The notes beneath the pieces were generated by a model that saw only the letters and a program-made list of their open reading frames with translations, had not been told where the DNA came from and searched no databases. Below, piece by piece: positions 8,107 through 53,613 of a stretch of 64,000 bases of DNA; position 1 is the stretch's first letter; each line of letters begins with the position of its first letter. Location: positions 2,688,001 through 2,752,000 of the forward strand of contig OZ250165.1 in the NCBI GenBank assembly GCA_965238005.1, in the 5' to 3' direction. The position numbers were made by a program, and so were the translations under genes. The stretch is from Longimicrobiales bacterium (GTDB lineage: Bacteria > Gemmatimonadota > Gemmatimonadetes > Longimicrobiales > Gaopeijiaceae).

Positions 8107-8110
8107 CGGT

Positions 8111-18572: not shown

Positions 18573-18895
18573 TGGAACAGCTCCGCGTGAGTGCCGGCCC
18601 GAGCAAAGTAAACCGAACCGCTGGGGCCGTCCGTGTCGTCGATGCGATAGATCAGAAGGAAGTCGCCACCGACGTGGCATTCCCGGTAGTGCGCCCATGA
18701 GCCTTTGAGCGCGTGATCCCTCCGTTCGGGACCGAGCGGGGCCTCGTTGGCAATGAGAAGGAGCATGACCGCCTTCAGCCGATTCATATCGTATCGGCCG
18801 GAACGCGAAAGCCGCTCCCAGTCCTTGAGGAATTGCCGGGCGTAGTCGACCCGGCGCGGGAGGTTGGCCCGTTTACTGGCCGCTGGCTTCTTCAA
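18569..18895 (-). CDS. yafQ: YafQ-family mRNA interferase toxin
   Basis: RDHALKGSW..YRECHV.GDFLLIY...GTHAELF. Confidence 0.88.
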   Translation of the reverse strand: MKKPAASKRANLPRRVDYARQFLKDWERLSRSGRYDMNRLKAVMLLLIANEAPLGPERRDHALKGSWAHYRECHVGGDFLLIYRIDDTDGPSGSVYFARAGTHAELFH

Positions 18896-19154
18896 GCTCC
18901 GCAAACATCTCGTCCGCGTTGGCGAATCGCGCGGTGCGCGTCTTCACCATCTCGTCGATCTCGGCCATGGCCCTACGGGTTTGCGCGTTCGGTACCTTGA
19001 GTTCGAGCGGGAATGCCTGATCGACGGCGATGCGGTGGAAGAGCAGCCGCACGGCCTCCGAGGCCGTCAGGCCCATCGCCGCCAGCGCTTCCGTCGCCTT
19101 CTGCTTCATCTCGGTGTCCATCCGGACATGGAGCATTGAGCTTTGTGTCCTCAT
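18873..19154 (-). CDS. dinJ: RelB/DinJ antitoxin
   Basis: LHVRMD..MKQKA..ALAAMGLTASEAVRL...FPLELKVPN. Confidence 0.88.
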   Translation of the reverse strand: MRTQSSMLHVRMDTEMKQKATEALAAMGLTASEAVRLLFHRIAVDQAFPLELKVPNAQTRRAMAEIDEMVKTRTARFANADEMFAELEEASGQ

Positions 19155-19222
19155 CCGTGCCTCCTGTATCGCAATTGCGATATAGCATGTCATGTCGGGG
19201 CGGCCCAGTCAACCCGATGCGA

Positions 19223-21972
19223 TCAAGCAACCGTCTTTCTGCCTGCCATCTTCGTGTACAGCTCGAACAACTTCTCCAGCCGTTCCGTATCGTTTCGGAA
19301 GCGTCGGCCGATGTAGATGCGCTCGAGCACTTCGTCGTTGCGGTCATGGGCGGCGCGGAGATTCTCCGGCATGCGGTCAGAAGCGTAGAGATCGGCGATC
19401 GTCGCGGGGAAGTGCGCCTCTTGCGCCAACAGGATGTGCTCGGCGCATGCCGTCAGGTCCGCCCTGTTTTTCTCGGTAAGCGTCGGCACGGGAAACGTGT
19501 TCCAACCCAAGGTGTTTGAATACTAGAAATCCGTCCGCAACCGAACACAAACCGTGCCGATCCAAACCCAATGGAGCCGTGACGCGACCAGCGCCATGTT
19601 CCAGAGCGGAGCATCGAAGAGGCCGTAGCACTTGTTCGATATGATGACTCCAGGCGGTAACAGGCCACATGGCAGGTAATCACGATTCTCTGAAGTAATT
19701 CCCGGAACGACGATCGTACTTTCGATTCCGATATTCATCTCGCGAAACTGGTGCGCTCGACTAGCCATCTGGTTGGCACCCTTGTCCCTGCTCTCGAGCC
19801 GCATGGCACGCACGGCCTCCACGCGGCTTCGGATCGACGGAATCGCAAGCGCTTCTTCCAGGTGTTCGTCCTCAATCCACAGGCAGTAACGTGAGAGCCC
19901 GCGAATGAACTCGGCCGAACCGTAGATGCGCCGGATGAATCGGGCCTTCTGTTCGGGGGTCAGTCCCAAGCTCTCTACTTCATCGCGGGTGAGGAGCAGG
20001 TTCCCGCCATCAACAGCCTTGTTGCCAAAGCTCATGTCAGTCAACCCGGACGATGGCGTGGAAGCCTTGTTTACGATCACGTTCGGCCCTGCCACCAAGT
20101 ACACATTGATACTCTTGGCCTCTCTCCGGATCGTCTCCCCATCTTTGCCGACGGAGTAGAGCCTTCGAACGGGCCCCGCGTCGTTCGACATTCCTACGAT
20201 TGCGACGGTTACGCCTGCGTTGTGGCTGGCCAGGTTCGTCCACTTGAAGCTGGTGTGAGCGAAGGCGATCTCCTGGCCCGTGGCAAAGACCGCGGGCCAG
20301 AGGATCGCCGCCTGCTGTCCCTGATTGAGCGAATTCGTGGTCACCAAGGCCGACGCCGCACGGGTCGTCTCCATGTAGCCGGCCGCCTTCATGAACCACC
20401 CGGCCACATAGTCGAGCAACCGCCACTGCTTCACCCTGCCCTTGAAGACCTGCTCGAGGTCTGCCTTCTGTGCCGACGACTGCCACGTACTCCCGAGGTA
20501 CGGGGGATTCCCGCAGATGTACGTCTCCCCGCCCTCGTTCTCGAAGTCGATCTCGGGTTGATCCAGTGGCGTGTGGAACAGGTCATCGCCAACGTGCTTC
20601 ACTCCGGTCCCCGTGGGTGGGCAGATGCCGCTCCAATCCAGCCGCAGGGCGTTCGCACAGGTGATCCAGTTCTCCTTGTCGAGCGGCAGGACCACGGCCA
20701 CTGCCTCCTTCTGCCCGAGATAGAGCACGTTGCACTGATACTCGGCGATGATGAGTGCTAGGCGTGCGATCTCGGCCGAGAAGTCCCTGAGCTCGATCCC
20801 GCGAAAGTTGGTCAGCGGAATGTCGGAACGGCGCCCGCTCTCCCGCCGGCGCCTGTTGATCTCCGCCTCGATCTCCCGCATCTCCTTGTAGGCGATGACA
20901 AGGAAGTTGCCCGAACCGCACGCCGGGTCGAACACCCGGATCCGAGCCATGCGGTTGCGCAGATTCAGGAGCTTGCGGTTGTTGTCACCGGCCTCCTGGA
21001 GCTGCTCGCGCAGATCATTGAAGAACAGCGGGTTGAGGACCTTAAGGATGTTCGGCACGCTCGTGTAGTGCATGCCCAGGTCGCCGCGTTCCTGCTCATC
21101 CGCGACCGCCTGGATCATCGATCCGAAGATGTCCGGGTTGATCTTTTTCCAGTCGAGACTGCCGATGTGAAGAAGTAGGATCGCGCGATCCGGCTGAAAC
21201 GCGGTACCTCCGTCGAGTCCGAGAACAGTCCACCGTTGACGTATGGGAACACTGCGGCCCAGCGGGAGAGGTTTGCCGTCTCGCGTTTCTCCATACTGGT
21301 GTTCATGGCACGGAAGATCTCGTCGATTACCTCATGGGTGTTCGAACCATCGGGGGTGCTCATCTGCTCGATCGTGCCGGTGAACGGGGCCTGGTCGGGG
21401 AAGATATTGGTGTCCTCCGCGAAGAAGCAGAAAATGAGCCGCGCCATGAAACGGTTCATGTCATGCTGCCGGTCGGTGGCGCCCCAGTCGGCGTTGTCCT
21501 TCAGCAACTCGACATAGAGCCGGTTCAGCCGCCCAGTGGCCTTGATGTCGAAGGCGCTCTCGCGGATCTGCGTGACGGTCGTGATCCCGGCGAGCGGCAG
21601 GAAGAAACCGAAATGCTCGTGAAAGTCGGGATATTCGCAGACGACGATGTCGCCGCTCTCCACATCCTCGGCGTGGAACTCTCGCCCGTCGGTCGACAGG
21701 ACGAACTTCGCCTTGGCCCGGGTGGTCTCTGGACTCGCCTTCAGGGCGGCCAGCGCAGCCGCGGCCTCGCCCTCCGGGGCGACCTTGATATGGATGTTGT
21801 TCCGCTGGAGGACCCCACCGATATCGGACCGATTCGTAGTGCCGGCGCGGAGCCGCTTGATGGTTGTCCGCTTGTTTCCGAACGCTTCCAGGAAGGTGAA
21901 GGGAAACTCGCCCGGATCGAACAGCTCCCCGGCGAGGTCGGAGACAGCCTCTTCAATCTCGACGGCATTCAT
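19223..21972 (-). pseudogene. yeeA: MmeI-like Type IIG/IIL methyltransferase (YeeA-like), disrupted
   Basis: MNAVEIEEA..., YVNGGLF, GMHYTS, FDPACGSGNF and GNPPY; frameshift near 21176 (SY/LLHIGSLDWKKINPDIFGSM); in-frame TAG at 19523-19525 (RTDF*YSNTLGWNTFP). Confidence 0.82.
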
Positions 21973-22359
21973 CGGTCATTCTAGATTCGCCTCGACCATC
22001 GTGGACCCCATCCGACAACCGCAAGATAACACGGGCGAAAGACTGCCACCGAGAATCCTCCGCGACCCGCGATCCGCGTTGCGACCGCGCCCCTCTGCCC
22101 GGCGATTTCGATGCAATCGTCACGGTCGACCTCGCGCACGATCTCTGCCGCCCAGCCGTGCAAGCGGAAGGGTTTCAGCACCGTCCGCTCCACCTCCCAC
22201 CGAAGAAGGTCCAGACGCGGGTTCGCAGAGATCACTCGGCCCCTCCATGTCGGCAACTCTCCCTCGGGCTCCGGCAGGAGCCGGAAGAACGAGGACGCAT
22301 CCCCCGGATGGACGCGCAGCGTCCCGCCGGCCGATTCGAGCATGTGGACGATCGCCGAC

Positions 22360-22513
22360 CTCCGCGGGCCAGACCGACCTCTGCCTCCCGCAGTGCAGTG
22401 ATGATCTGCTCCGGAGTGTGTCGCTTCCTTCCCATCCTGACCTCCTCGCTGAAAAGCTTTAGACCAGGTCGATCCTAACATTGCACCTGGTCTCGTTTCA
22501 GGGGGTCAGGTCA
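22360..22513 (-). mobile_element. IS3-family left end with orfA stub
   Basis: TGACCTGACCCCCTGAAACGAGACCAG terminus; GGAGG followed by MGRKRHTPEQIITALREAEV; truncated. Confidence 0.7.
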
Positions 22514-22921
22514 CCCGGCGCGTGCAAGCCCTTCCTGGACGAACGGGCCGGCCCGCCCGCGGACCCATTCGGCAAGGCGGGGACGGATCGCCTTTGTCCA
22601 GCGCCTCTCCTGACTGCGCGTGAGCGGCAGCGGCTCGTCGCCGGCACCGGCAACCAGATCCGGTGCGAAGCCGCGGATGTCGTAGGTGATGTCGATGTCT
22701 TCCGAGAACCGCCGGATCGCGCGCCACACCTTGGACAAGGAGGTGCCGCCCTTGAACACCAACTGATAGCCGAACGGGGCGTCGAACAGGACGCCGAGGG
22801 TTGCGACCACCCAGATGTCTTTCTCGAGCACGAACGCCGGGTGCGGGCATTCGGCTTGAGCGGCACGCAAGGCATGACGGCGCTCTTCGGACGCCAGGCG
22901 CTGAAACAGTGCTTCAGCCAT
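22514..22921 (-). pseudogene. AbiEii/AbiGii nucleotidyltransferase toxin, N-terminal part cut by IS3
   Basis: LEKDIWVV...LVFKGGTSLSKV..AIRRFSEDIDI; a tail resembling the antitoxin C-terminus (WMAEPLSTRLAHG*) overlaps its start. Confidence 0.78.
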
Positions 22922-23220
22922 GCGCCAGACGCGTGCTCAGCGGCTCCGCCATCCACACCGACTCTCGAAGCCCTTGATCCGTTGCCGCGGCAGGCACGGC
23001 ATCCCGCTCGGCGACCGCCCCGCGCCCCGGCATGTGAAACCTGTCACTTCCGTGTGGGCGACGCCAAGTCGGCCGTGCCCGGGCCGACCTTCCGGTCGAG
23101 CCCTAAGACCCTTGACGGGAACCTCTGGCGAGCGCTGCGGAGGGTGTGTCTGCCATGCCACTGGCGGAGCCATCCAACAGCTCGCGTACCGGACTGGCTA
23201 TCTCTAGACACTACAGGCAT

Positions 23221-33280: not shown

Positions 33281-34059
33281 CGCGGCGCGGCGCCGGCCGC
33301 GCGCGGGACCCGCCTTGAGGGCAGGGCGTCGCGTGTCCTGAGCAGGTGCGGGTCCGCCCGCGAGGGACGCGGGCGAGTCAGGCGCCCGGCCTGACCGGGT
33401 TGCGCTCAGCCGAGGCCTGACGCGCCCCGGTGAAACCGTGCGTGCGGGTAGGCTTAGGTCAGAGGTGGCTCTTGGCTCTTATAATGGTGGATCACTTCGC
33501 CTCCCGATTTGTCAACCCCTAATTCGATGTATTCTACTCCGTGTTCCGAGGGCCGAGCAAGTGGTAACCCCACTCAGCCTGGAACGAGCGGTGACTCCAA
33601 GCTCCCTCTCGGACCTACGCTGGGAGTGCTCGTCGAAGCTATGGACGGCCGAATCGGATTCTGGCCTCATCGAAGCCTACGACCGGGTTCACCGCAATGG
33701 GTCTGGTCCGGGAGCAAGTTGCCCTTGGACTCTTTCCCAGGGGGGAGAGACGAGCTGACGACGAAGCGGCGAGGGGCTATTCCACTGCGGCACCACCCGG
33801 CAAACGGTGCGCCTCTCCGGGGCGCACTTCCGGTGACCTGCCTGCCTGTCATGCCACGACTGGGATGTGCAAGACACGTCGGGGGTCGATACACAGATTG
33901 CCCCGGCAGCGATTCACACGGGCGCGGCTCTTCATGCGATTGTAGCTAATGCAGTTACGCCTTGTGCTGGCCGGTCGGCGCGGCAAACCGGGCAGCACCG
34001 AGGTTGACGGGAGGCGACCCCCCGATCTGACGATCCGGTACGGGGGTTCGGGGGGCATC

Positions 34060-34143
34060 CCCCGCCCGCGAACTCCGCCGGAGCGCGGGCCTCCTGGGGG
34101 ATCGAAGGGGGAGCGTGGAGCATCCCCTCGCCAGATCGCAATG
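34060..34143 (-). other. Distal half of a ColE1-type oriT (copy 2), cut at the hairpin loop
   Basis: Minus strand CATTGCGATCTGGCGAGGGGATGCT matches 11787-11811. Confidence 0.7.
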
Positions 34144-34850
34144 GTAGAGTCGAGGGCTGGCGCGCCGACGGTAGGGTCCGGTGGCTATTCCGTCGCTTTC
34201 GCTCCGGGCCTCAGACCGGCTCCCATAGTCACGTTTCCAGTCCCCGCTCATCGGTAGGGTCGGGAGCTGGCGCGCCGACGGTAGGGTCCGGTGGCTGTCC
34301 CATCGCTTTCGCTCTGGCCCTCAGTCCGGCTCCCGTGACCACGTTTCCAGCTCCCGCCTCGTCAAACGCAGCATGCGGTTTTCCCGCACTACGCTTTCCT
34401 GTTGCCTTCATCCCATGGGTTATGGGGCCTACTGAGCCGGGAGCGCTTTCGGCGACAGATAGCGAACCCGGTACTGTGAGAACAATCCGAGCCGCTCATA
34501 TAGCCATCGCCTACTCCACCTCTTCCAGCCAAATCCCCGACGTCCGCGCTGTTGCATCAGATGTCGCCGTATCTTCTTCTCGACCCAATCCTTGACCTGA
34601 CCGAAACATCTGCTCGCATGCCCTACGCAAAAATAGTTCACCCATCCACGCAGGATCGGGTTGATCAGGTCCACGACCTGCTCCACCGGTTGCGAGCGAT
34701 AACGTCGGAACACTTCCTTGAGTCGGCGCAGGAGTTTGGTGCGTGCCTTCATTGTCGGCACACACCTCACCCCCCACTTGCCCCGCCGCGTTTTCGCACG
34801 GCGGATCTCAAACCCCAGAAAACGGAAACTCTCGCCATTGGCAAGATCAA
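34144..34850 (-). mobile_element. Group II intron 3' remnant: maturase end, domain V and two tandem domain VI/3' ends
   Basis: DV AAGCGTAGTGCGGGAAAACCGCATGCTGCGTTT (about 34364-34396); 3' ends GACCCTAC at 34254 and GACTCTAC at 34144. Confidence 0.85.
34429..34850 (-). pseudogene. ltrA: Group II intron RT/maturase C-terminal fragment without endonuclease domain
   Basis: FRFLGFEI (RT7) and LINPILRGWVNYF (domain X). Confidence 0.85.
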
Positions 34851-34957
34851 CAGCGACACTGCAACTAGGAGCGTCCTACATAACCCACTGCGGTAGCTAT
34901 AGTTAGATAATCTTACCAGACACATATGGATTGTATTGGAATCTGTGTGTAGCAGAC
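34851..34957. mobile_element. Integrase-proximal end of a sibling integrative element
   Basis: Alignable with 46062-46168, including the shared block CTTACC.GACACATATGGATTGTATTGGAAT. Confidence 0.75.
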
Positions 34958-36744: not shown

Positions 36745-38345
36745 GAGTCTGCGCCGCAGAACCCTGCGGCGGCTATCTTTGGTGGTAGCGAAGGCATTGG
36801 GAAGGCTTGCGGATCACCGAGGGGGGTGAATGGGAACGACATTTCGACCGTACGATCCGGAGCAGATGTTGTTGCTGCCTCCGGATCTTCGGGAGTGGGT
36901 GTCGGAGGGTCATTTGGCGCACCATGTGAGCGACCTGGTGGACGCGGTGGAGCTGAGCGCGTTCTACGGGCGGTACCGGGGGGACGGGCGGCGCAACTCG
37001 CCGTACGACCCTCGGATGATGGTCAAGGTGCTGATCTACGCGTATGCGACGGGCACCTTCTCGTCGCGGAAGATGGCGAGGAAGCTGGAGGAGGATGTCG
37101 CGTTTCGGATGCTGGCGGCGGAGAACTTCCCGAAGCACCGGACGCTGTGCGAGTTCCGCAAGCGCCATCTCGGGGATTTCCGGGCGGTGTTTGTGGAGGT
37201 GGTGATGCTCGCGCGGGCCTTGGGGCTGGCGGGGCTTGGCAGGGTGTCGGTGGACGGGACGAAGGTTCGGGCGAACGCGAACAAGCGCAAGGCGATGAGC
37301 TACGGCCGGATGGTGACCGGGGAGCCTCGGCTGGAGGCGGAGATCCGGGGGCTGTTGGAGAGGGCCGAGGCGGTGGACGAAGCGGAAGACGAGCGCTACG
37401 GCGAGGAAGCATGCGGAGACGAGGTGCCGGAGGAGCTCAAGCGGCGCGAGGACCGGCTGGCGGCGATCCGGGAGGCGAAGGCGCGCCTGGAAGCCGAGCA
37501 GAGAGCGGCGGACGACGCACGGGGCCGCAAGCCGGGGCAGACGCGCAACCCGAAGGGCGGCAGGCCCTACAAGCGGGAGTACGGAGAGCCGGACGAGGCG
37601 GCGCAGAGCAACTTCACGGACCCTGAGAGCCGGATCATGAAGACGAGTTCGGAGGGGTTCCAGCAGTGCTACAACGCACAGACGGTCGTGGAGGGGGAGA
37701 ACCAGCTGGTGGTCGGGGCCGAGGTGACGGACAACGCGAGCGACCAGGGCCAGCTGGTGCCCATGGTCGACGCGGTGGCGCAAGCGTACGGCGAGACGCC
37801 GGCGCAGGTGCTGGCGGACACGGGCTATTGCAACGAGCGGGATCTCGAGGAACTGGAAGAGCGAGACATCGACGGGTATGTGGCGCTGGCCCGGGAGGGC
37901 AAGGCCGCCCCCACGGTTGACAAGGAGGAATATCCGGCGAAAGTCCGCATGGCGGAGAAGCTGGCGAGCGAAGATGGCCGCAGACGCTACGCACGGCGAA
38001 AGTCGCAGGCCGAGGCGCCCATCGGCTGGATCAAGGAAGTGATGGGCTTTCGACGATTCAGCTACCGGGGCCTCGAGAAGGTCCGGGCCGAGTGGACCCT
38101 CGTGTGCCTGGCACTCAATGTGAAGCGGCTGCACACCCTTCAGGCGGCATGACTGCACGAGGGTTCACCCGCATCTGCCGGCGCGAGGGCTCTCGTAGCT
38201 CTCTTGCCCCCCCAACGCATCCATTCCGCTCTCCCGATCCGTCGCAGACACAAGTCCTCAACCTCCCAATCACCCGGATCCGCCTCGCCGCGGACGGCTC
38301 GATGACCATTCGGCTCAGTCAGCTGTGCTTCTGCGGCGCAGACTC
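36745..38345 (+). mobile_element. Complete IS1182-family element, 1601 bp
   Basis: Perfect 17-bp terminal inverted repeats GAGTCTGCGCCGCAGAA; CTAG duplicated at 36741-36744 and 38346-38349. Confidence 0.92.
36830..38152 (+). CDS. IS1182-family transposase
   Basis: PYDPRMMVKVLIYAY..G.FSSR, VDGTKVRANA, TDPESRIM, YNAQ and LADTGY. Confidence 0.92.
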   Translation: MGTTFRPYDPEQMLLLPPDLREWVSEGHLAHHVSDLVDAVELSAFYGRYRGDGRRNSPYDPRMMVKVLIYAYATGTFSSRKMARKLEEDVAFRMLAAENFPKHRTLCEFRKRHLGDFRAVFVEVVMLARALGLAGLGRVSVDGTKVRANANKRKAMSYGRMVTGEPRLEAEIRGLLERAEAVDEAEDERYGEEACGDEVPEELKRREDRLAAIREAKARLEAEQRAADDARGRKPGQTRNPKGGRPYKREYGEPDEAAQSNFTDPESRIMKTSSEGFQQCYNAQTVVEGENQLVVGAEVTDNASDQGQLVPMVDAVAQAYGETPAQVLADTGYCNERDLEELEERDIDGYVALAREGKAAPTVDKEEYPAKVRMAEKLASEDGRRRYARRKSQAEAPIGWIKEVMGFRRFSYRGLEKVRAEWTLVCLALNVKRLHTLQAA

Positions 38346-38425
38346 CTAGCGCGGTTTTGCGGCGCGGCGGGCCGCGGGTCCGATCCGATCGTGCGGTCGA
38401 GCATCTGTCGACTCCTTCTTTGGCG

Positions 38426-39454
38426 TCAGCGGCCCGGACCGAAGTTCCGTTTGGGGAGCGGCAGCGGGAGCTCCGGCCTTGCGGCGTGCTGCGGGTCGGG
38501 AGCCCGAGTGGCGGCCACCGGAGTGGGCTCCCGCTCGGCCTGGCGCTCGCGGCTCCGGGCCAGCACGAAGTCGGAGATCTTCTGTGCGTCGGCCGCGGCG
38601 CGGCGGATCTCCCTTGGGTCTTCCTCGAGGGCAGTGACCCACCCCTCGACGTAGGCGGCCCCTCGGCTCGGGTCATGGCCGACGCCCACGCGCTCGCCGG
38701 TCATCATTGCGCTGATCTCCGCGCGGAGCTCCTCCTTCGCATAGGCCGGTGAGCCGAACCCTTCGCCGATCCCTTGGGTGAGCGTGGCGCGGTTCATCCG
38801 CTCGGGATGGCCCGTGCTGTGCCCCAGCTCGTGCAGCGCGGTCTGGTAGTAGTGGTTCGCCGAGGGGAACTGTCCCCTCTCCGGAAGCACGATCTCGTCG
38901 CGGTTCAGGTTGTAGAACGCCCGGTCGCCGGCCATGTGACGGACGGGGACCCCGCTGTCCTCGAGGACGCGTTCGGCCTGCTGGTGGACCTTCCAGAGCG
39001 GCTCGGCAGCGGGCGCGGGCCGCGCGGGCAACCCGTCGGCCTGCTCGGCGTTGAAGACGGTGTACTGCCGGACGACGGGCGCGCGCATCCGCTCGTATCG
39101 GTAGACGCGCTTGCCTTCGTTGTCCGTGACGGGCCGTCCGCGCTCGTCGTTGACGGCGATCTTCCGGTGGTCCTGGAAGGAGAGGATGCGGGTGCCCTGC
39201 TCGCCCTTCCGCACCTGTCCGCCCCGGGCTTGGATCTGGCGGTAGGTTCCCCAGCGCACGTCGCCGTAGCCGCGCTCCTGCTGGACGGCGGCAAGGTGCA
39301 GGCTGTTCCCTCCCGAGTAGGAGCGTCCGGTATCGACGTTCGCGGGAAGCACGCGCTCGCCCGGCCCCCAGGGCTTCTGCCAGGGCGCCGTGCCCTGGCG
39401 GATCTGCTCGATGACCCGGTCGGCGAACTGGCGGTGGTATTCGTCGTGTTTCAT
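38426..39454 (-). CDS. ardC: ArdC-family ssDNA-binding antirestriction protein
   Basis: PWQKPW, TGRSYSGGN and GGQVRKGEQG; zincin-like HELGHSTGH. Confidence 0.85.
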   Translation of the reverse strand: MKHDEYHRQFADRVIEQIRQGTAPWQKPWGPGERVLPANVDTGRSYSGGNSLHLAAVQQERGYGDVRWGTYRQIQARGGQVRKGEQGTRILSFQDHRKIAVNDERGRPVTDNEGKRVYRYERMRAPVVRQYTVFNAEQADGLPARPAPAAEPLWKVHQQAERVLEDSGVPVRHMAGDRAFYNLNRDEIVLPERGQFPSANHYYQTALHELGHSTGHPERMNRATLTQGIGEGFGSPAYAKEELRAEISAMMTGERVGVGHDPSRGAAYVEGWVTALEEDPREIRRAAADAQKISDFVLARSRERQAEREPTPVAATRAPDPQHAARPELPLPLPKRNFGPGR

Positions 39455-42560: not shown

Positions 42561-43539
42561 GCGTTGCTTCGTTCAGTTCCCGCACCCGGGGGGCGAGCAC
42601 CGACCCGACCGTAGCGGAAGTAAGCCGTGGCACACCCGGGCAAGCAGCCATGCGCGGAAGTTCATGCAGTTCCCTGGCGAGTGGATTGCGTCGGACGACA
42701 GCCCGCACCGCGGCGAATTGTGGGCGTGGGGCGAGTGGGAGCCCGAGTCGCGCCTCATTCGTGAGCTCGACCAGTCCCGTGGCAACCGGGACTATCCGCG
42801 TTACCTCTGGCAGCCGTACTACGTCCTGAGGGACAACTACCGGGGACTGCACAATACCGACCCGTTCATCTTCGGCGAACGCTTCCTCTATTCGAACTGC
42901 CGTCAAGGGGCCCACAGCCCCGGCTTGATGCGCCTCGGTGAGGGGTCCGTGATCGCCTTCGGCAGCGGTAAGCAGGGAGTCGGGGGCGAGTGGAGATGGT
43001 GGCTCGATACCGTGTTCGTGGTCGCGAATTCCGATCTCTATCCGGTATCCGAGGCAGACCGGGTGCTGAAGGACTGGACGTCTGACGTGTTCGGCATCGT
43101 GACCGGCGGACCGCTCGCCGACAACCACGAAGGCGGGTGCGCAGCGGACGTGCGGCTCAGGCTCTATCGGGGCGCGACGCCGGACGATCCGGTGGACGGA
43201 ATGTTCAGCTTCTTCCCCGCGCAGCCCGCCGGTGACGGGACGGGCTTTCCGCGACCGGGCATCGACCTGCCAAGCGAGTACTTCAACCCCGCCTGCTATA
43301 TAGCTCCCAAGGGGGTCAGCCGCGAGCACTGCCGCGATCAGCTACACTCGATCTGGATGGCCCTCGTCGCGCAGGTGCGGCAAGCCGGGCTCGTGCTCGG
43401 CACATACGCGGAAGTGCCACCACAACGGGCACACACGGGTGCTTCTAACGATCTGAACACCGACGGAAACCGTTCTCTGGGAACGACCGCTCAGGTCCCG
43501 CTCAGGGCACCGAGATGCGGCAGATGTGCACAGCCATGA
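42550..43539 (+). CDS. Hypothetical protein, possibly nucleotide-modification-associated (Nmad-like)
   Basis: Clean ORF overlapping the upstream gene by 11 bp; HNTDPFIFG..FLYSNCRQ...L.EGSVIAFGS...LDTVFVV. Confidence 0.5.
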   Translation: MADKRCFVQFPHPGGEHRPDRSGSKPWHTRASSHARKFMQFPGEWIASDDSPHRGELWAWGEWEPESRLIRELDQSRGNRDYPRYLWQPYYVLRDNYRGLHNTDPFIFGERFLYSNCRQGAHSPGLMRLGEGSVIAFGSGKQGVGGEWRWWLDTVFVVANSDLYPVSEADRVLKDWTSDVFGIVTGGPLADNHEGGCAADVRLRLYRGATPDDPVDGMFSFFPAQPAGDGTGFPRPGIDLPSEYFNPACYIAPKGVSREHCRDQLHSIWMALVAQVRQAGLVLGTYAEVPPQRAHTGASNDLNTDGNRSLGTTAQVPLRAPRCGRCAQP

Positions 43540-43584
43540 TCAGCTCCTCCTCACAGCCTCTGCCACGTATGGGCAGGTGGAGGA

Positions 43585-43940
43585 CTTGATGATCCAGGCT
43601 TCCGAGCGTCGGGCGACGAGTTCGTTTAATGTACGAGAGCCAGCATACCCCTTGGGGCCACGCTTCGCGGGTCCCGGGCAGGGGCTGGCGAGGGGTAGCT
43701 CCGCCCCCCTTCGAACCCCCGAGGCCCGCGCTCCTGCGGAGTGCTTTGCCCCCCTCCCCCTTGCCGGTGCGCTGATGGCTGAGCGCCGCACGTCACCGCC
43801 GCCGCCCGCGTATCGCCAGCTGAGCTCACCGACTGGCGGGCCACGGCAACGGTCGCTGGCGTGCCTCTCTCGGAGCTGATGCGGCAAGCCATGGCACGCG
43901 CACGGACGTGGGCCGCCCCGACATCGGCGGAGCGAGTGAT
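43585..43940 (+). pseudogene. mobC: Degenerate oriT (copy 3) and mobC remnant
   Basis: Homologous to 11700-12060; GAGCCAG in place of TAAGCCAG; ATGGCTGAGCGCCG at 43775, frameshifted. Confidence 0.65.
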
Positions 43941-43973
43941 ATTGAACCCACGCTACCATTGGGAGGCATGCCG

Positions 43974-44606
43974 ATGACGGGCACCGTGGTCGGATACGAC
44001 CCTGGTGGCAACCGCAAGCATGGACTTGCGTGGGCGACGGTTGAAGACGGGAATATCGTCAACGTGACTACGAAGACCCTCTGCAACGTTGAGGAGGTGG
44101 TTGCATTGATTTTCGATATCGAAACACCCCTTGGGCTCGGTATCGACACCCTCACCTGCTGGGGCACTGGTCGCAGTGGCTGGCGTCCGGCGGATCGCTG
44201 GCTTCGACGGCGCTATCCCGACGTGCAGAACAGCGTCCAAGCGCCAAACTCCCTTTACGGGGCCATGAGCGTCAGCGGAATGGCATTGCTGGTCGCCGTG
44301 CGACAGGCCTTCCCCGACATCTTCGTTACCGAAACCCACCCCAAGGTGCTGTACCACGCGCAGTGCAACGAACGCTACGACTACAACGGCCCGAACACAT
44401 CCGTCATGAACAAGCACCTGAGTCGATTGCTCGCCGTCGATGTCGCACTTCAGAACGAGCACGAGTGGGACTCTGCCATCTCGATTCTCGCGGCCGTCCG
44501 TGGACTTCATGGGTTATGGCAGCGTGACCTGCACGCTCTGCCGACCGATTCCGACGAACGTTTGGTGCAGCCGTGCGGCAGGACGGCCTACATGTGGCCC
44601 GAATAG
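43974..44606 (+). CDS. DUF429-like RNase H-fold predicted nuclease
   Basis: VVGYDPGG, LGIDT, R.ADRWL, ETHPK and HEWDSAIS; GGAGG RBS. Confidence 0.7.
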   Translation: MTGTVVGYDPGGNRKHGLAWATVEDGNIVNVTTKTLCNVEEVVALIFDIETPLGLGIDTLTCWGTGRSGWRPADRWLRRRYPDVQNSVQAPNSLYGAMSVSGMALLVAVRQAFPDIFVTETHPKVLYHAQCNERYDYNGPNTSVMNKHLSRLLAVDVALQNEHEWDSAISILAAVRGLHGLWQRDLHALPTDSDERLVQPCGRTAYMWPE

Positions 44607-44689
44607 AATGTCGGGCCGGTCATCCGGCTCCCAACCCCACTAGCCGGCCCTCGGACTCGCGAGGCTTTTGGAGCGGATCGCTCGCGAAC

Positions 44690-44780
44690 TCCGCCGGAGC
44701 GCGCGCCTCCAGGGGATCGAAGGGGCGGAGCCCTCGCCAGCCCCAATGTACCCACATTGGGTAGGCTGGCTTAAGCACCT
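44690..44780 (-). other. ColE1-type oriT, copy 4
   Basis: CTGGCTTA at 44766-44773; hairpin CCCAATGT-accc-ACATTGGG; about 45 bp downstream of the integrase. Confidence 0.7.
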
Positions 44781-44818
44781 TAGTCTCCGCCTGAGGTGCC
44801 GCGACGGTGGGCTGCAAC

Positions 44819-46006
44819 CTATGGCTTGCGACTGTCGCCGGTGAGGTACGCAGCCCAAAGCTCCATCAGGACGCGCCTGCGCTCGAACAGGTCGGAACGA
44901 GCGTAGGCGGCCTCCGCCTTGTTGCGGACCACGTGCGCCAAGGCCGCCTCCATGACCGCATGGGGGGTGTCCGTGCATTCGGCCGCCCAGTCCCTGAAGC
45001 TGGACCGGAAGCCGTGCGGCACGGCCGCGATGCCCAGTCCTCGAAGCAGCCTGGGGAGGTTGGTGTCGGAAAACACGCGGCCCTCCGGCGACGGGAACAC
45101 CAGACCGCCACCACCGCCGAGCGTCCGCGCCTCCTCGAGGATCACCATGGCGCGCCCGGACAGCGGCACCCTGTGGGGGCGCTGGGCCTTCATGCGCTCA
45201 CCGGGGATGGTCCACTCGGCCGTCTCGAGATTGATGTCATCCCAGCTTGCCAAGCGAACCTCACTGGAGCGGCACGCCGTCAGCACCAGGAACTCGAAGG
45301 CGAGCCTTGTCGTGAGGGTCGACGCCGAAGTCCGGGCCGCCTCGATCGCGCCCGCGACCTCCGCGTGAGGCAACGCGCGCATGTGCCGGACTACGACGCG
45401 CTGTCGGCCGAGCGCTTGACCGAGCACATCGCCAGCGGGGTTGTCCGGCCGAAGCTCCATCGCCACCGCCCACTTCATCACCGCCCCGATGCGCTGGCGC
45501 ACCCGCCGGGCGGTCACCTGCTTGTCGTGCCAGATCGGTGTCAGAACCGCCAGAACGTCGGCTGTCGTTATCTCGCCGACCGGTCGATTGCCCAGCTGTG
45601 GGAACGCATAGACGCGCAGGCTGGTGACCCAGTCCTTCGCATGCTTGGCGGTACGCCAGCCCGGCCGCAGCTGTTCCAGAACACGGGCGGCCGCCTCGGC
45701 GAACGTGGGCATGTCCCGGATCTTGTGCCGCTCGGTACGCGGATCGCCGCCCGAGCGCGCGATCTTGCGGTTCATGAATGCCTTCTCGCGCGCCTCGGCC
45801 AGCGATACCAGCTGGTAGCCCCCGAGCCCCATCGTGCGGGGTCGGCCCTGGATCCGTAGACGCTGCTCCCATCGGCGCGCGCCGGATCGGTCCACGCGCA
45901 GATAGAGGCCGTTCCCGTCACAGTAGTATCCGGGCTTGGCACTGCGCACGAAGGCCGCGCTGAGTGCGTTGTGCGGGCGTCTCCCTCGGTGTTTGGGCAA
46001 ATCCAT
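44819..46006 (-). CDS. P4-type tyrosine integrase
   Basis: DGNGLYL arm domain; TACRSSE, HGFRSSFRDW and LAH...AAY. Confidence 0.92.
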   Translation of the reverse strand: MDLPKHRGRRPHNALSAAFVRSAKPGYYCDGNGLYLRVDRSGARRWEQRLRIQGRPRTMGLGGYQLVSLAEAREKAFMNRKIARSGGDPRTERHKIRDMPTFAEAAARVLEQLRPGWRTAKHAKDWVTSLRVYAFPQLGNRPVGEITTADVLAVLTPIWHDKQVTARRVRQRIGAVMKWAVAMELRPDNPAGDVLGQALGRQRVVVRHMRALPHAEVAGAIEAARTSASTLTTRLAFEFLVLTACRSSEVRLASWDDINLETAEWTIPGERMKAQRPHRVPLSGRAMVILEEARTLGGGGGLVFPSPEGRVFSDTNLPRLLRGLGIAAVPHGFRSSFRDWAAECTDTPHAVMEAALAHVVRNKAEAAYARSDLFERRRVLMELWAAYLTGDSRKP

Positions 46007-46168
46007 TTCCTATATCCCGTATAAAGTATCGTATGACATGTACGGGAACATAGCGGACATACAGCGACTCTGTAACCCGGAGTGTAGTTATATAACTAAC
46101 TGCTATACTGAGAGTTATATAACCTTACCGGACACATATGGATTGTATTGGAATTTATGTACTGGAGA

Positions 46169-46889
46169 TGAGCGATCCGCCGTGGCCAGTGTTCAGCGCT
46201 TGGAGGAGATCGGCGGCCTCGCCGCCCCTGACCTCTCCGACGACGATGTGGTCGGGCCGGTGGCGGAGCGCGTGCCGGACCAGGTCGCGGATCGACACGG
46301 GCGCGTCGGAGCCGACGGCTCCGGCCTCGAAGCGCAGGCAGTTCGCGCGCTCGATCCTGAGCTCGAGCGTGTCCTCGATGGCGACGATCCTCTCCTCCTC
46401 GGGGAGCAGCTCGATCAGTGCGTTGAGGAGTGTGGTCTTGCCCGAGCCGGTGCCTCCGGAGACCAGGATGTTGCGCCGCGAAGTGAGAGTGTCGCGGGCG
46501 GCGCGGAACACCGTCTCTGGCAAGGCGCCCTGGCCAACGAGGTCTTCGGCCGAGAACGCGCGGCCCCCGAACCGGCGGATGGTCATAGCCACGTGGGGGC
46601 TTGCGGGCGGCGTGCATATGGCGACCCGGGAGCCGTCCTCGAGCCGCGCGTCTAGGACGGGCCGTGTGGCCGGATCGAGCCCGAGCGGCCTGGCGATGTG
46701 GATGGCCGCCCGGTAGAGTGCCGCGGCGGTGAGCGCCGGTGCCTCGATGGGCTCGAGCTCTCCGCCGCGCTCGACCCAGACGTTGCCGGGGCCGTTGATC
46801 ATCAGCTCGGAGACCTCCGGATCCTCGAGCACGGCCTCGAGGCCGGGCAGAAACGGCTTCAGATGCCCGATCCCGCTCGCGCGCTTCAT
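46169..46889 (-). pseudogene. trbB: VirB11/TrbB-type ATPase, N-terminal half
   Basis: GGTGSGKTT, IEDTLEL, LRHRPD.IVVGEVRG and LNTGHGG. Confidence 0.88.
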
Positions 46890-48168
46890 AGCCGGCCCTC
46901 CTCGCGGAGCCGCCAGTAGCCCGTGCTCCTCGGCAGGTAGTGGGGCTGCAGGTAGACCCGCCGGGCCGGAAGGGACTTCGTGCCGTCGTAGGGCAGGCAG
47001 ATCGCCTGATAGTTGGCGAGGAGCGTGAAGTCCCTCGGCGTGAACACCGGCTCCCGTGCCTGCCGGAACGACTTGCTCGCGCCGATCGTGCCCCGTCCGC
47101 CTCCGGCGCGTCCCGATAGCAGCGAGAACTCCGGCCTGCCCGTCGTCTCGGTGAACGTGTAGGACGGCTGCGTCTTCATGACGCTGCCGCACATCTCCGA
47201 TGCGATCCGGGCCGAGGACTCGTCGCTCAAGGACAGGAAGATCCGGGTGCGGAGCGTCTGGACCAGGGTGCGCCACGCGTCCGTGCCCGACAGCACGGAG
47301 CGGAGCGAGGAGATCGACTGCGTCGCGACGATCGGGATGCAGCGGCACTGCCGCGTCAAGGCGAACGCCTTCTCGTCGCCAGCGGGGTCGTCCTGGCCCA
47401 CGGTCGCGAACGCTTGGTACTCGTCGCAGATGAACACGGCGGGCCGGAGGTAGCGGCCGGGCCGGCGGGCGGCCTCGGCGGGCCGCCGGAGCAGCGCCTG
47501 CATCCAGGCGTTCTTGAGCAGCACGCCGATGGCGCGTCCGAGCGCCGGGTTCGCGCCGGCGGGCATGTTGAGGGCCAGGACCCTGCCCCCTTCGATCAGC
47601 TCGGCGAGCGGCGGCAGGCGGCGGCGAAGGCCCGGCATGGGCCGGACGGCCGCCGCATCCTCGTCCGGTGTCTCCTTATATAGATGTGTGGGCGCATCCG
47701 GATCCGGAGGCGGCGGACAGAACACGCTCGCGACCTGCGGCTGGTCGAAGAGCGAGAGGAAGACGGAGATGCCCTCGACGATCGAGGTGCGGAGCTTGGC
47801 ATCGAGCGCCATCCAATCGTTCAGGTACCAGCGCTCGATCGCCTCGACCTGGTCCTTGAGTTCGCTGCCTGCGCCGCTCTCGCCTTTCTCGGTCTCGAAC
47901 GGGATCTCGAACTCGGCGAGCCGATCCCGGAGGACCGGGTCGAGCCGGCACGTCACCGTGTCCTCACCGGAGGTATATATCCAGACCCAGTCATTCAGCG
48001 CTTCCGGATGGCCGATCATGTCGTCGTGGGAGATGACGACGCGCGCCGGGCACGCCTCAGCCACCAGGTCCTTGGCCTCGCGGATTCTCTCGGCGAATAG
48101 TTCCGCGTCGATCGTGCAGCGGTAGATGTCCTGCAGCGTGACCCAGCCCCCCGGCAGGAGCCGGTGCA
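46886..48168 (-). pseudogene. VirD4/TraD-type coupling protein, C-terminal half
   Basis: FICDEYQAF Walker B and IVATQSISSL; joins 62580-63342. Confidence 0.82.
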
Positions 48169-48701
48169 ACCTATCTAAAAGGCTCGTAAGTCGTTGTGGG
48201 TATTACCTAATCGGTTTGCGCGTGTCTAACAGTGCCCCCAGAGTTGCCCCATAATCGCACCCGCATCCAGCGCTCGCCATCAGCGTCCATTGCGATCCAG
48301 CATAGCGGAGCCATCGTCTCGGCCCCGCGGGTGCCAGCTGGCCGGCGCGGCCGCCCCGCAGGGCAGCCTAGTAAGATCATGCTATATCATCCGAGGCAGC
48401 CCTACGGACTGCCTCGGACAGCTAAATAACTCATTTTATACAAACGAGTTATATATTTAGCGACGGTGCTCTGCCCCCCATTATTTCCACCGGGACGAAA
48501 CGGATTTCCTCGGCCCTTCGTGGCCGTGAACGGACGCGTCAGTCCGAATGCCACGCGGCCACGCGCCCAAGGCCGAGCGGCTGAGCGTGGGGTCGGTGAT
48601 GCTCCGATCCGTACCGCCTGTGCCCAACCGACCCGGCGTCACGCCGCCCAACCAGTGGGTAGCATCTCCGCCTGTTCGAGTACCGCCCGCATCGCCATCA
48701 A

Positions 48702-49472
48702 TCACGATCCGGTCGTTGAGTTCGAAGTTACCCCCGCCGACGGGCAGATGGGTCCCATGTAGCATTCGCCGCACGCGGGTGCCCGCCTTGCGTGACACCA
48801 CGTGCGTCCGATCTGCCATGTTGGCCAGTCAAGCTCTCCGGGCCAATCCGGGTTGAGTTCGCGAGCGCGCAGCTGGAGCCCAATCTTCTGTTTCTCCGTG
48901 GTCGACCGTAGCTGGCTGTGTTCGAACCCTGGGAGAAGGTCCAGTCGCTTCCACACGCGTAGGACGTGAGTATCGACGGGAATGTCGGGCCTGGGCGTCG
49001 GGAGCTCGATGCCGAAGTCGCGGATCAGGATGTTCGCCGCCATGCTGGCAATCTTCGGACCCACACCGTCAAACTCCAGGAACCGTCTGGCGACTGCAAC
49101 ACCGCTGCTTCCGTTGGCCCAGATTCGTGCGGCGTCCCCGCCGTACCTGTCGCCGATAAGTCGGATGGCTGCGGGAAGTAATCGCTCCATGTCGGTGGCC
49201 AGCCGGTGGCCGGATGACGCGAGTACGGAGGACCAGACACTCCCCCGAAGCCCCGCTAGGGTCTCGAACTCGAAGTCCCCCGCGGCCTTACAAATCGCGT
49301 GTGGAAGGCTCCATGCGATATCGGCTTGCGTTTGACGGTCGGCGATGCACGCCAGCACGAACGCGTGCGGATAATGCTCAAGGTCGTTCACGAGGTCGCG
49401 CGCGGCGGGCTCGACGGTGATGCCGGAGACGCCACGCTCCTGCTCGAGCGAATCCTCACCGAACCGCTTCAA
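48702..49472 (-). CDS. HhH-GPD/endonuclease III-like DNA glycosylase with Fe-S motif
   Basis: FDGVGPKIA, IPVDTHVLRV and C-terminal C...C..C.....C. Confidence 0.8.
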   Translation of the reverse strand: MKRFGEDSLEQERGVSGITVEPAARDLVNDLEHYPHAFVLACIADRQTQADIAWSLPHAICKAAGDFEFETLAGLRGSVWSSVLASSGHRLATDMERLLPAAIRLIGDRYGGDAARIWANGSSGVAVARRFLEFDGVGPKIASMAANILIRDFGIELPTPRPDIPVDTHVLRVWKRLDLLPGFEHSQLRSTTEKQKIGLQLRARELNPDWPGELDWPTWQIGRTWCHARRAPACGECYMGPICPSAGVTSNSTTGS

Positions 49473-49807
49473 ACATGAGACGATGCGGTTTATCTCTGCC
49501 AGATAGAATCCCCCCTCATGGCCCTAGTTGCCTCAACTTGGAACCAAGCAACTGGACCCGTCTGTCTTCACAGCGGTCGCTCTCGCCGAGGCGGAGAATC
49601 CCGAGCGCGTGGAGCTTGCAGGTGGCCGACCCGCAGACCGGGCCGACGAAACCGGCCAAGACCTCTGAGCTAAGCCGACTGCTGAGAATCAACGTACGGC
49701 CACGGGCCTTCGCATCAAAGCCGAACTCCCTTCGTGGACTACGACGGCCCCCATCCCTCGGCCCGGTCCTCTCCGTGCAACTTCCCGGCGGTGTTCAGCC
49801 GCAGCGC

Positions 49808-49935
49808 GGCGCTGGCACACAAAGGTCCGCAACCAGATCGAGGCAGCGTATCGGCGCACGGACCTGTTCGAGCGCCGACGGCGACTCATGGACGATTGGG
49901 CCGCGTACCTCGCCGGTGGAAGCCGCAAGCCATAG
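49808..49935 (+). pseudogene. Tyrosine integrase C-terminal remnant
   Basis: RNQIEAAYRRTDLFERRRRLMDDWAAYLAGGSRKP*, homologous to the end of the 44819 integrase. Confidence 0.75.
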
Positions 49936-49971
49936 GTTGCAGCCCGCCGTCACGGCACCACAGGCGCAGGC

Positions 49972-50075
49972 TAAGGTGCGTAAGCCAGCCCACGCAATGT
50001 TAAACATTGCGAGCTGGCGAGGGGGGTGCTCCGCCCCCCCTTCGACCCCCCGAGGACCCGCGCTTCGGCGGATTT
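49972..50075 (+). other. ColE1-type oriT, copy 5
   Basis: TAAGCCAGCCCACGCAATGTTAAACATTGCG at 49981. Confidence 0.7.
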
Positions 50076-50228
50076 CGTGGGCGGGGGACTCCCCCCGGCC
50101 ACGGGCCATACTCTCGCTCTGGCCCATGCTCGGACCGCAAGACGCCGTGGACCGTGGATGTAAGCGTTCGGCGGGGCCATGAGGATGGCGCCGGACTTGG
50201 CCCACAACGGGGCTCCCTGACGGGGCGC

Positions 50229-50347
50229 GCGAGGTCATCGAAGCAACCCTCGCGCATGTGGCCCAGAACAGAGTGGAGGCGGCCTACCGGTGCTCGGAGC
50301 TGCTCCAGCGCCGACGCAAGCTGATGGACGACTGGGCTGCCTGTTGA
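50229..50347 (+). pseudogene. Second integrase C-terminal remnant
   Basis: EVIEATLAHVAQNRVEAAY..SELLQRRRKLMDDWA. Confidence 0.65.
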
Positions 50348-50383
50348 TGCTGCCTATTTTTCACGATTGAACTGTGCCAAGCA

Positions 50384-51118
50384 TCACCGAGACGATGGGA
50401 GGCGTTTGCCCAACTTCCAGATGCCCCTAAGGTGCATCATGTCAACCATTGGATTATACTCGCGGCCAAGGTTCTCTACAAAGAGCTTTGCTTTTCTCTC
50501 ATCGAACCTGTCGAAATCGTCAGCATCAGCGAGGAATTCTGATATATACCGAACCGCGTGACTTGCCCTTTCGAGCATGACGATAAATCGGTTAGCGTAC
50601 ATTGGGTGAACGACTTCGTTCATCATATGTATACCGAGGCGCCGCAAATCGAATTTTTGGAGAACTTCGTATATCGCATCAGTGGCATCGGAGATGTCAT
50701 TGACTGATTGTGGACCGATTCCGGAGCCTTCTAGAGACTGCTTCTCGTCAGCATGAGCGATGGTCTTGTTTCTGGCGACACGAGCAGATTTCGTGGCTTC
50801 CTTTGCCTTTTTCAAGGCATTCTCGATATCCACACGTAGCTCATCATCGTCATCACAAAACTCCAACAACCGTTCCACACTGACATTTGTCTTGGATCCT
50901 GTCTTAGGAGGGTCCGTCAGTCGCGATAACCGCAGAATCAAGTCATCCCAGAGCCTTGGCCAAATGTAGAGGTGAAATAAATCGCCGCCAAAAGGGTCAA
51001 TCGTTTGTCGTGCATCTAGCTCGCTGAACAAGTCCTTGTAGCTGTCGAGCGACCATTTCAGAGTAGTCCAATCCTCCCACAGCTTCTCGTGTATCTCAGC
51101 AGCCTTCCCTTCAAGCAT
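50384..51118 (-). CDS. HEPN AbiU2-like protein, paralogue of 14542
   Basis: LWDDLILRLSRLTDP and RNKTIAH; low GC. Confidence 0.7.
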   Translation of the reverse strand: MLEGKAAEIHEKLWEDWTTLKWSLDSYKDLFSELDARQTIDPFGGDLFHLYIWPRLWDDLILRLSRLTDPPKTGSKTNVSVERLLEFCDDDDELRVDIENALKKAKEATKSARVARNKTIAHADEKQSLEGSGIGPQSVNDISDATDAIYEVLQKFDLRRLGIHMMNEVVHPMYANRFIVMLERASHAVRYISEFLADADDFDRFDERKAKLFVENLGREYNPMVDMMHLRGIWKLGKRLPSSR

Positions 51119-51159
51119 GATCGTCGTTCCGTTCGCCCGAGCCCCGCTGATCGTCTGCC

Positions 51160-51593
51160 TCTACTGCCCGCGGTGCGCCAGCTTGGGCGACGCCAAGGCC
51201 AGCAAGCGCCCCGATGACGTTCTGGTGCGGATCGTGCCGGAAGCGGTTCAGCGTTCGCACGGATTCGGTCTTGGAGCAGACGCGGCTGCCCCTGCGTAAG
51301 TGGGTGATCGCCATCTACCTTTACACGACCAACCTTAAGGGCGTGTCGAGCATGAACCTCCACCGCGACCTGGACATCACCCAGAAGTACGCGTGGTTCA
51401 TGCTTCACCGCATCCGCAAGGCGTGGGGCGGCCAGTCGGCCAGCTTCTCCGGGCCGGTCGAGGTTGACGAAACCTACATCGGCGGGAAAGAGAAGAACAA
51501 GCACTCATCGAAGCGGCTTCGGGCTGGCCGTGGCGCGGTCGGGAAAACGGCGGTCGTCGGAGTCAAGGACCGCGAGACCAACAAGGTCGCGGT
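51160..51593 (+). mobile_element. IS1595-family transposase fragment
   Basis: CPRC...CGSCRKRFSV, AWFMLHRIR and VEVDETYIGG. Confidence 0.8.
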
Positions 51594-51900: not shown

Positions 51901-51918
51901 GGAGCTGGAGGGGTTGGA

Positions 51919-52749: not shown

Positions 52750-52767
52750 CCCACCAACCGTCCCCGC

Positions 52768-53487: not shown

Positions 53488-53613
53488 CTGCCCTACCTCC
53501 TCCGTTGGGTGCCTGGCGAGAAAGATCGTCTGATGCGAGGGGCTGGACCAGCGTCGTCCATCCCGTGGGTCGTAGAACGAATTAACTAGACACGCTCCAC
53601 CACGTCGGCGATC

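Follow-up and report, generated by a model that had tools for sequence, protein, structure and literature searches.

The window analysed here is a stretch of 64,000 nt from Longimicrobiales bacterium GCA_965238005.1 (contig OZ250165.1, positions 2,688,001 to 2,752,000, forward strand). On its minus strand the remains of two group II introns meet one half of a hairpin site. Read along that strand, the locus opens with a divergent group II intron, the second of the two, which lies inside the outer one and, being truncated at its 5' end, survives as its 3' part (34254-34850; RF00029, 29.3 bits; GIIM, 3.9e-18). This inner intron retains an ORF fragment for the end of the reverse transcriptase (RT) and the maturase X domain (34429-34839), a domain V (34360-34398) and an extended domain VI (34254-34362). 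It is followed by 110 nt (34144-34253) that hold the extended domain VI, and no other domain, of the outer group II intron, with a bulged A and a CTAC end. The 3' exon of the outer intron is the 3' half of the hairpin site (34035-34143), made up of the 3' arm CATTGCG, CTGGCGAGGGG, a GGGG..CCCC hairpin and a TTCGA box.

Copies of the same site lie elsewhere in the window. Intact site 1 (11756-11900, plus strand) carries a TAAGCCAG box (11763-11770), an outer stem GCCAG/CTGGC and the hairpin itself (11775-11793), and a truncated NikA/MobC-like gene lies directly downstream (11906-12118, plus strand; PF21983, 2.4e-10). Site 3, also intact, has the loop TTAAA (49974-50100, plus strand); it is found 52 nt after a P4-type integrase gene fragment, with no mobC downstream. 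Intact site 4 (44690-44790, minus strand) lies 52 nt after the integrase gene 44819-46006, its hairpin being a compensatory variant, CCCAATGT GGGT ACATTGGG. In site 5 (43640-43935, plus strand) a long inner hairpin variant is followed by a MobC-like fragment (43801-43935). Two other identities for these sites were tried and dropped: a tRNA-derived att site, as neither a tRNA nor a tmRNA was called in the window by ARAGORN, and a known RNA family, as a permissive Rfam scan of 43400-50400 gave chance-level matches only.

The surroundings are rich in mobile and defence functions. Defence genes are dense at 4597-23000 and 50384-59400 (a type ISP restriction enzyme, a PLD-helicase, MmeI-type enzyme parts, AbiU2, AbiEii, YafQ/RelB and a type III-like Res/Mod pair), and the same surroundings hold fragments of conjugation genes (ArdC, coupling protein, VirB11-type ATPase). 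An insertion sequence at 36745-38350, with a DDE_Tnp_1/DUF772 transposase gene (36830-38152, plus strand) and the terminal inverted repeats CTAGGAGTCTGCGCCGCAGAA, is flanked by an ArdC-like gene (38426-39454, minus strand) and a 272-aa ORF. The inner-intron break coincides with an AT-rich 72-nt repeat (34877-34948) that is 81% identical to a second copy at 46089-46160, which lies upstream of the integrase gene 44819-46006 and has a VirB11-type ATPase gene on its other side. This repeat, matched also at 512189-512230 of the same genome, is possibly a terminal or regulatory region of an integrase island.

The two domain VI units of the window (34144-34253 and 34254-34362) stand in tandem, are about 110 nt long each and are 86% alike. 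Both show the extended domain VI fold, a bulged A 7 nt from the end and the CTAC 3' end. When 14 tails were aligned, the domain VI consensus had 25 predicted pairs, of which 12 carried compensatory changes, and a branched extension of ~75 nt (GGAAACG...GCGAAAGC...CCGGACCCTA), supported by covariation, was conserved in the domain VI of all family members. The outer unit is 96% identical to the domain VI of a full-length intron in another genome (locus L017), and it starts exactly where domain V of that intron ends (...GTCCGGTT/CGATGAGC). At gathering level Rfam gave no match in the whole window; domains V-VI of the inner copy scored 29.3 bits with RF00029 against a cut-off of 40, and the outer copy has no domain V. 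The reading frame of the inner unit, which corresponds to an RT/maturase end (GIIM, 3.9e-18), breaks off near 34850 beside the 34877-34948 repeat, and its domain I and 5' junction are lost. Its product shares 26-36% amino acid identity with the family proteins, so that domain VI is conserved far better than the protein (86% of nucleotides versus about 30% of amino acids between the two window copies). The tail, domain VI and the matches to L017 thus indicate that the outer intron has been reduced to its last domain with a second intron fragment inside, and the low identity of the inner maturase makes the arrangement either a twintron with a divergent intron or a recombinant.

A full-length family member is absent from this genome. 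One further family tail, 80 nt long, is present at 813 kb, where an IS3-type element cuts it and the flank is different. Outside the window, a possible 5' end of a more distant group II intron (GTGCGCCGTGCAAAGG...) was noticed at genome position 4327854 (plus strand), and 4328007-4328187 matches the intron family at 69%. The window element itself is a dead remnant without likely function.

Related copies from other genomes were used to describe the intact form of the intron. A DNA search of 61 related genomes gave matches in 8, and with a full-length copy as query 49 of the 401 genomes of the class were matched (E <= 1e-10). Forty loci were fetched, from which 42 5' junctions, together with 3' junctions, were tabulated. 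The family found in this bacterial class is ~2.05 kb long and has the form GTGCG...CTAC; the GTGCG start is seen only in the relatives, since the window copy has no 5' end. The reference copy, L013 (2644-4695), measures 2052 nt, GTGCG...CTAC, and exceeds the Rfam cut-offs for RF02003 (65.2 bits, cut-off 49) and RF00029 (44.3 bits, cut-off 40). The non-ORF RNA of the intron is about 780 nt long with the ~75-nt domain VI extension, and the domain V triad is AGC. The 424-aa protein that it encodes matches RVT_1 (2.4e-31), GIIM (1.8e-14) and TIGR04416 (323 bits, cut-off 300), and no nuclease or endonuclease domain was found in it. The first-pass annotation had assumed an intron lacking an endonuclease domain, and the protein of this relative, with its RT and maturase domains, bears this out. 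Among solved structures its nearest counterparts are IIC RTs (2.3e-46 for GsI-IIC and 1.9e-42 for the next), followed by a IIB RT (1e-32) and LtrA (6e-26).

At the window junction, the 3' end of the outer intron on the minus strand (...CTCGACTCTAC, or ...GCGCGCCAGCCCTCGACTCTAC; last base 34144) joins CATTGCGATCTGGCGAGGGG (34143-34124). The proposal that the intron end abuts the 3' arm of the putative oriT hairpin, intact at 11775-11793, was confirmed: the plus strand there reads CGCAATG TCAAA CATTGCG and continues with ATCTGGCGAGGGG, as beside the junction. The whole of 34143-34035 (genome 2722143-2722035) aligns with the intact site over ~110 nt at 76%, and the junction match is therefore no chance 20-mer. 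The point equivalent to the insertion in site 1 is 11786/11787. The 5' half of the site (GTAAGCCAGCCCACGCAATGT) occurs in the window as intact copies at 11762 and 49980 (plus strand) and as a variant at 44774 (minus strand), and the search of the window revealed none next to 34144. Downstream of the intron-bearing site there is no MobC match.

Full-length relatives of the outer intron, as anticipated in the first-pass annotation, were found at the identical position of the site in 4 other genomes of the same class, whose record titles read Longimicrobiales or Gemmatimonadetes. All four sit in the same site family. Including the window, five genomes have the identical 3' junction. Three loci of this site-A group (L013, L015 and L017) keep both junctions, in the general form GCCAGCCCACGCAATGTTGAA/intron/CATCGCGG: L013 reads GTAAGCCAGCCCACGCAGTGTTTAA/intron/CATTGCGCTCTGGCAAGGGG, L015 reads ...CGCAATGTTGAA/.../CATCGCGGTCTGGC with an internal insertion of ~1.3 kb in the intron, and L017 reads ...CGCGACGTTGAA/.../CATCGCGGACTGGC. 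The fourth, L059, retains the 3' junction only; its intron is 98% identical to that of L013 and is cut by an IS3-type element. L059 came from a scan of species-representative genomes for the junction pattern, which returned 6 loci: the DNA of L013, L015 and L017, this new locus and two chance matches. The latter, both in Chromatiaceae, were rejected as they lie inside a gene and have no intron.

Because the hairpin variants, the downstream flanks and the intron subtypes differ between the genomes of this group, several independent insertions into the site are indicated. Within 3 kb of the occupied sites, in the window and the 4 genomes, no MobC or relaxase homologue was found, so these sites are orphan copies. 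The hairpin arms mismatch at one position in all three occupied sites with both halves (L013, L015 and L017), and each half of these sites agrees with a variant whose hairpin, where it occurs elsewhere, is perfect. Of the 18 empty sites in the genome under study, by contrast, 17 are perfect hairpins. These mismatches suggest decay after insertion, or recombination between intron copies that shuffled the site halves.

In this genome the 18 intact sites share conserved flanks, TAAGGTGCGTAA GCCAGCCYA ... CTGGCGAGGGG ... CCCCTTCGA.CCCC, around at least 7 inner-stem variants, whose arms are complementary save for one mismatch, in the copy at 1001085. As a DNA fold, site 1 forms the outer stem GCCAG/CTGGC and an 8-bp inner stem (-16.6 kcal/mol, z -3.68). 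The inner-hairpin variants look like specificity classes for MobC/NikA-like proteins. A 37-nt version of the inner hairpin occurs 4 times among the genome sites. A MobC homologue starts within about 200 nt downstream (60-200 nt), on the same strand, at 8 of the 18 intact sites, and at 3 of those 8 it is itself followed by a relaxase (PF03432). The MobC-like protein, of 111 aa, matches the Pfam families NikA-like PF21983 (5.5e-14) and MobC PF05713 (2e-9). The relaxase matches Pfam Relaxase PF03432 (5.5e-6), and its best NCBIfam model is MbeA (3.7e-30; 105 bits against a cut-off of 500). No match to the TrwC, TraI_2 or MobA_MobL relaxase families was found in the genome.

Plasmid records with a homologue of the relaxase number 3416, of which 3258 are typed mobilizable; in each case a MobC gene is the neighbour. 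Upstream of mobC on the proteobacterial plasmids NZ_CP115725.1 and NZ_AP024719.1 we observed the succession TAAGCCAGCC(C/T)A, hairpin, GGCTGG.AGGG, GC hairpin, and the block AGCCAG.C.AC was invariant in 6 of 6 aligned sequences, the 2 plasmids included; searched as DNA, the site gave no match to plasmids. A position upstream of mobC and the relaxase, with the same blocks on plasmids, is the place and the build of an oriT. The site is thus best read, on this gene order and architecture, as the oriT of a MobC/MbeA-type mobilisation family, and the oriT label given to it in the first-pass annotation is supported to the same extent. The integrase-linked sites (5 of 18, including window sites 3 and 4), which lie 52-90 nt past a P4-type integrase gene and have no mobC, are read as oriT copies carried by integrase islands. 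The ColE1/pBR322 nick motif, which we take to be CTGG/CTTA, is the complement of TAAG/CCAG in this site. If this motif applies, the nicked strand would be the complement of the mob genes and of the intron, which would place the intron on the untransferred strand, and the distance between nick and insertion point would be 20 nt (in site 1, from 11767 to 11787).

EBS1 was sought by aligning the initial 700 nt of 42 copies with MAFFT and scoring the columns against the 5' exon. It was located in the loop of a stem, CCCTCC(loop)GGGGAAGG, and pairs with the last six bases of the exon: in this column pairing was complete (6/6) in 22 of 39 copies, with a mean of 5.18 of 6, and the runner-up column reached 12 of 42. 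Covariation was assessed with one representative for each of the 17 distinct EBS1 sequences, for which 83 of 102 positions pair; shuffles of the 17 types averaged 49.9 paired positions (sd 5.0), and not one in 20000 reached 83. EBS1 moreover tracks the target (for example TTCAAC/GTTGAA, GCAAGAA/TTCTTGC, TGTAATC/GATTACA and GACATT/AATGTC), with exon misfits in L020, L042 and the tandem copy of L031. Judged from these pairings, target choice is set mainly by the 6-7 nt EBS1 loop.

Pairing of EBS1 and EBS2 with the 5' arm and loop of the oriT, a check proposed in the first-pass annotation, was seen for EBS1 and was not found for EBS2. EBS1 of L017 (TTCAAC) pairs with GTTGAA at 6/6, and that of L013 (TTTAAC) with its own exon GTTTAA at 5/6; the L013 sequence would pair at 6/6 with GTTAAA, the loop of window site 3. 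A scan for EBS2/IBS2 over exon positions -13 to -5 gave 9 of 41 in its best column, among few groups and with offsets that may vary. In folded site 1, IBS1 takes in the loop together with the two 5'-arm bases before it and the single 3'-arm base after it. The window copy has no domain I and hence no EBS1, and as it also has no 5' junction, its homing is deduced from the relatives. Members of the other subgroups are inserted at unrelated sites that fit the EBS1 of the subgroup concerned: ...TTAGACGATTTCCTGC/CGGGATTC, positions after TGTAA..TTACA hairpins, TAGCCCGGATTTCTCA/ and AAAGTAGAAATGTC/. The oriT is therefore one of several targets of the family.

The commonest of these targets, here called B-type, has the form ...GCAGATCGTGCAGTCC-N10-TTAGACGATTTCCTGC/CGNGATTC and is occupied at L018, L021-L025, L028, L029, L041, L044 and L051, and at 813282 of the genome under study, outside the window. 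About 140 nt of its left flank are conserved, with repeated TTCCCGCC boxes, and the right flank is variable; in L014 and L029 empty copies lie about 160-220 nt downstream of the occupied ones. In L022 and L025 the B-type target abuts the oriT hairpin, replacing the TAAGCCAG block. The idea that it might mark another insertion point within this oriT element and carry an RP4-like nick motif was dropped: among the 16 B-type 3' flanks examined, 3 of them classed as 'B?', the hairpin follows about 26 nt downstream in only those two loci, window site 1 aligns poorly to the B flank, and the genes near one B site were uninformative.

How the window remnant was put together admits of two accounts other than successive intron insertions. 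A deletion or recombination might have joined an intron fragment and half a hairpin by accident at 34143/34144, and the mosaic character of the whole region (IS, truncated inner intron, AT-rich repeat) and the missing 5' half of the site could be cited for such a scar. The first-pass annotation had itself named this as the outcome that would undo its proposal; the same junction, base for base, in 4 other genomes with differing flanks and intron subtypes, in three of them with a matching 5' junction and a complementary EBS1, refutes an accidental join at the 3' junction and makes such a scar highly improbable. A recombination or duplication between intron copies, rather than insertion of one intron into another, could likewise have produced the tandem domain VI units: the mismatch between units that are 86% alike and a maturase at 26-36% identity suggests a chimera, and in the directly tandem copy of L031 its own EBS1 is unmatched. 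Yet the inner unit ends properly (CCCTAC) and the outer sequence resumes exactly after ...GTCCGGTT, past domain V, as a precise insertion predicts. Nested family copies with an EBS1 that matches the host do exist, as in L049, where the loop CTAGGGTA at position 3876 faces the exon ACCCTA. We regard recombination as somewhat unlikely for these units. Tandem or nested copies are frequent in the family (L031, L045 and L049, in genomes G230, G120 and G007), and the EBS1 of the L049 copy, TAGGGT, complements the 3' end of another intron, ACCCTA/.

For the nature of the site itself there is one main rival reading, in which P4-type integrase islands would use the hairpin for attachment or recombination, or it would serve mobC as an operator, and the intron would have homed in the ordinary way to a conserved island sequence. 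This would fit the 5 of 18 intact sites found 52-90 nt after an integrase gene and without mobC, the sequence to the left of the TAAGG..TAAGCCAG block, which differs from copy to copy, and the occupied sites, near which there are no mob genes. However, at 8 of 18 sites the hairpin keeps a fixed short distance upstream of mobC, or of mobC and relaxase, on the same strand, and small plasmids of other phyla, around whose mob genes no integrase is annotated, show this arrangement of blocks ahead of mobC as well. The integrase-linked orphans, for their part, resemble mobilisable islands that carry an oriT mimic, such as the MGIs of SXT/R391. We therefore consider an attachment site or operator unlikely and retain the transfer origin as the preferred identity of the hairpin.

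Taken together, the most probable explanation, which we hold with fair but not full confidence, is that window 34144-34253 is the last domain of a group II intron that retrohomed into the oriT-type hairpin of an integrated mobilisable element. The intron would have inserted between the loop and the 3' arm (TCAAA/CATTGCG), and in the site-A subgroup an EBS1 of TTCAAC or TTTAAC pairs with the end of the 5' arm and the loop (GTTGAA or GTTAAA). Afterwards the second, divergent intron would have come to sit in the final bases of the outer domain V, probably forming a twintron, and a later rearrangement would have taken away everything upstream, which left the window copy dead. For the entry itself, an endonuclease-less intron ribonucleoprotein may reverse-splice into the strand with GTTGAA/C where the loop is unpaired. 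Candidate settings would be melting of the oriT by the relaxosome, extrusion of the hairpin, a replication fork moving through, or the close of a round of transfer, when the retained strand would be bare and the replacement strand, coming from the 3'-exon side, could prime cDNA synthesis. We infer both the nicking of the site as an oriT and the opening of its loop, by melting or extrusion, to an intron that does not cut. The cumulative GC skew of the genome is irregular (minimum at ~4.79 Mb, maximum at ~1.87 Mb), too much so for the window copy to be placed on the leading or the lagging template.

A wider reading would make this endonuclease-less lineage one that uses the loop of an oriT, exposed by the relaxosome or by transfer, as its IBS1, and hence the oriT a fourth kind of group II target. 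It would further hold that insertion takes place about 20 nt from the nick, in the retained strand, with the returning replacement strand priming cDNA synthesis; that recombination between intron copies in different oriT variants shuffles the hairpin halves; and that the intron, since it splits the inverted repeat in the DNA, would silence that oriT. Taken whole, this reading is tentative and in our view rather doubtful. Three target specificities of bacterial group II introns are listed in the 2015 review PMC4424553, namely homing sites, terminators and attC. Group II introns residing in relaxase genes are on record, and relaxase nicking is reported to influence retrotransposition (PMC4256276). 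A limited full-text literature search returned no account of an oriT as the homing target of a group II intron.

The element resembles several known systems in part. Its protein differs from that of Ll.LtrB, which has an endonuclease domain. Ll.LtrB belongs to group IIA and resides in ltrB, a relaxase gene carried by conjugative elements of Lactococcus (PMC4256276, PMC1874635, PMC7947834). Like Ll.LtrB, the intron described here is associated with the DNA-processing module of an element that conjugates or can be mobilised, and is carried along by it. Unlike Ll.LtrB, which interrupts the relaxase coding sequence, it occupies a non-coding hairpin upstream of mobC, and no EBS2 pairing was seen. 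The attC and the oriT are both handled as folded single strands. The domain V triad is AGC here versus CGC in IIC introns. With class C introns, including IIC-attC, our family shares the lack of an endonuclease domain, an apparently short exon recognition and targets associated with DNA hairpins; PMC4424553 describes IIC introns as inserting after terminator stem-loops and IIC-attC introns in the attC hairpins of integrons. It differs from them in inserting inside the hairpin, at the border of loop and 3' arm, and in the about 780-nt non-ORF RNA with the ~75-nt domain VI extension. Insertion of the IIC type, after a terminator or in attC, was not what we found, the A-type site having no T run; some sister subgroups do insert right after short hairpins, e.g. 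TGTAA..TTACA/.

RmInt1 uses EBS1, EBS2 and EBS3 on a longer site, unlike the present family, in which no EBS2 signal was detected. It is comparable in other respects: RmInt1-type introns are, according to PMC4615759 and PMC4496777, endonuclease-less and home site-specifically into multicopy mobile DNA, the target of RmInt1 being insertion sequences. The site, in turn, is like those of the ColE1 superfamily in its gene order, a MobC/NikA-like gene and then an MbeA-like relaxase, and in having the TAAGCCAG block and an inverted repeat upstream of mobC. It is unlike them in being chromosomal, in Gemmatimonadota islands, with many copies orphan or adjacent to an integrase, in the lack of a DNA-level plasmid match and in a relaxase that scores below the NCBIfam cut-off. 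We read the new part as the target, that is, the lineage and its oriT-type site, the kind of element being already known.

With the window copy a dead remnant, the interest of the finding rests on the lineage and its target. With its 17 EBS1 types, the family amounts to a natural series of EBS1 retargeting events, and it raises the question whether the entry of an endonuclease-less intron depends on the relaxosome or on DNA transfer. If the interpretation is right, repeated entry into oriT would add to the targets of group II introns one that is present in many copies, moves horizontally and is periodically melted or single-stranded, and would link the spread of a retroelement to conjugation in a way other than that of Ll.LtrB in its relaxase gene.
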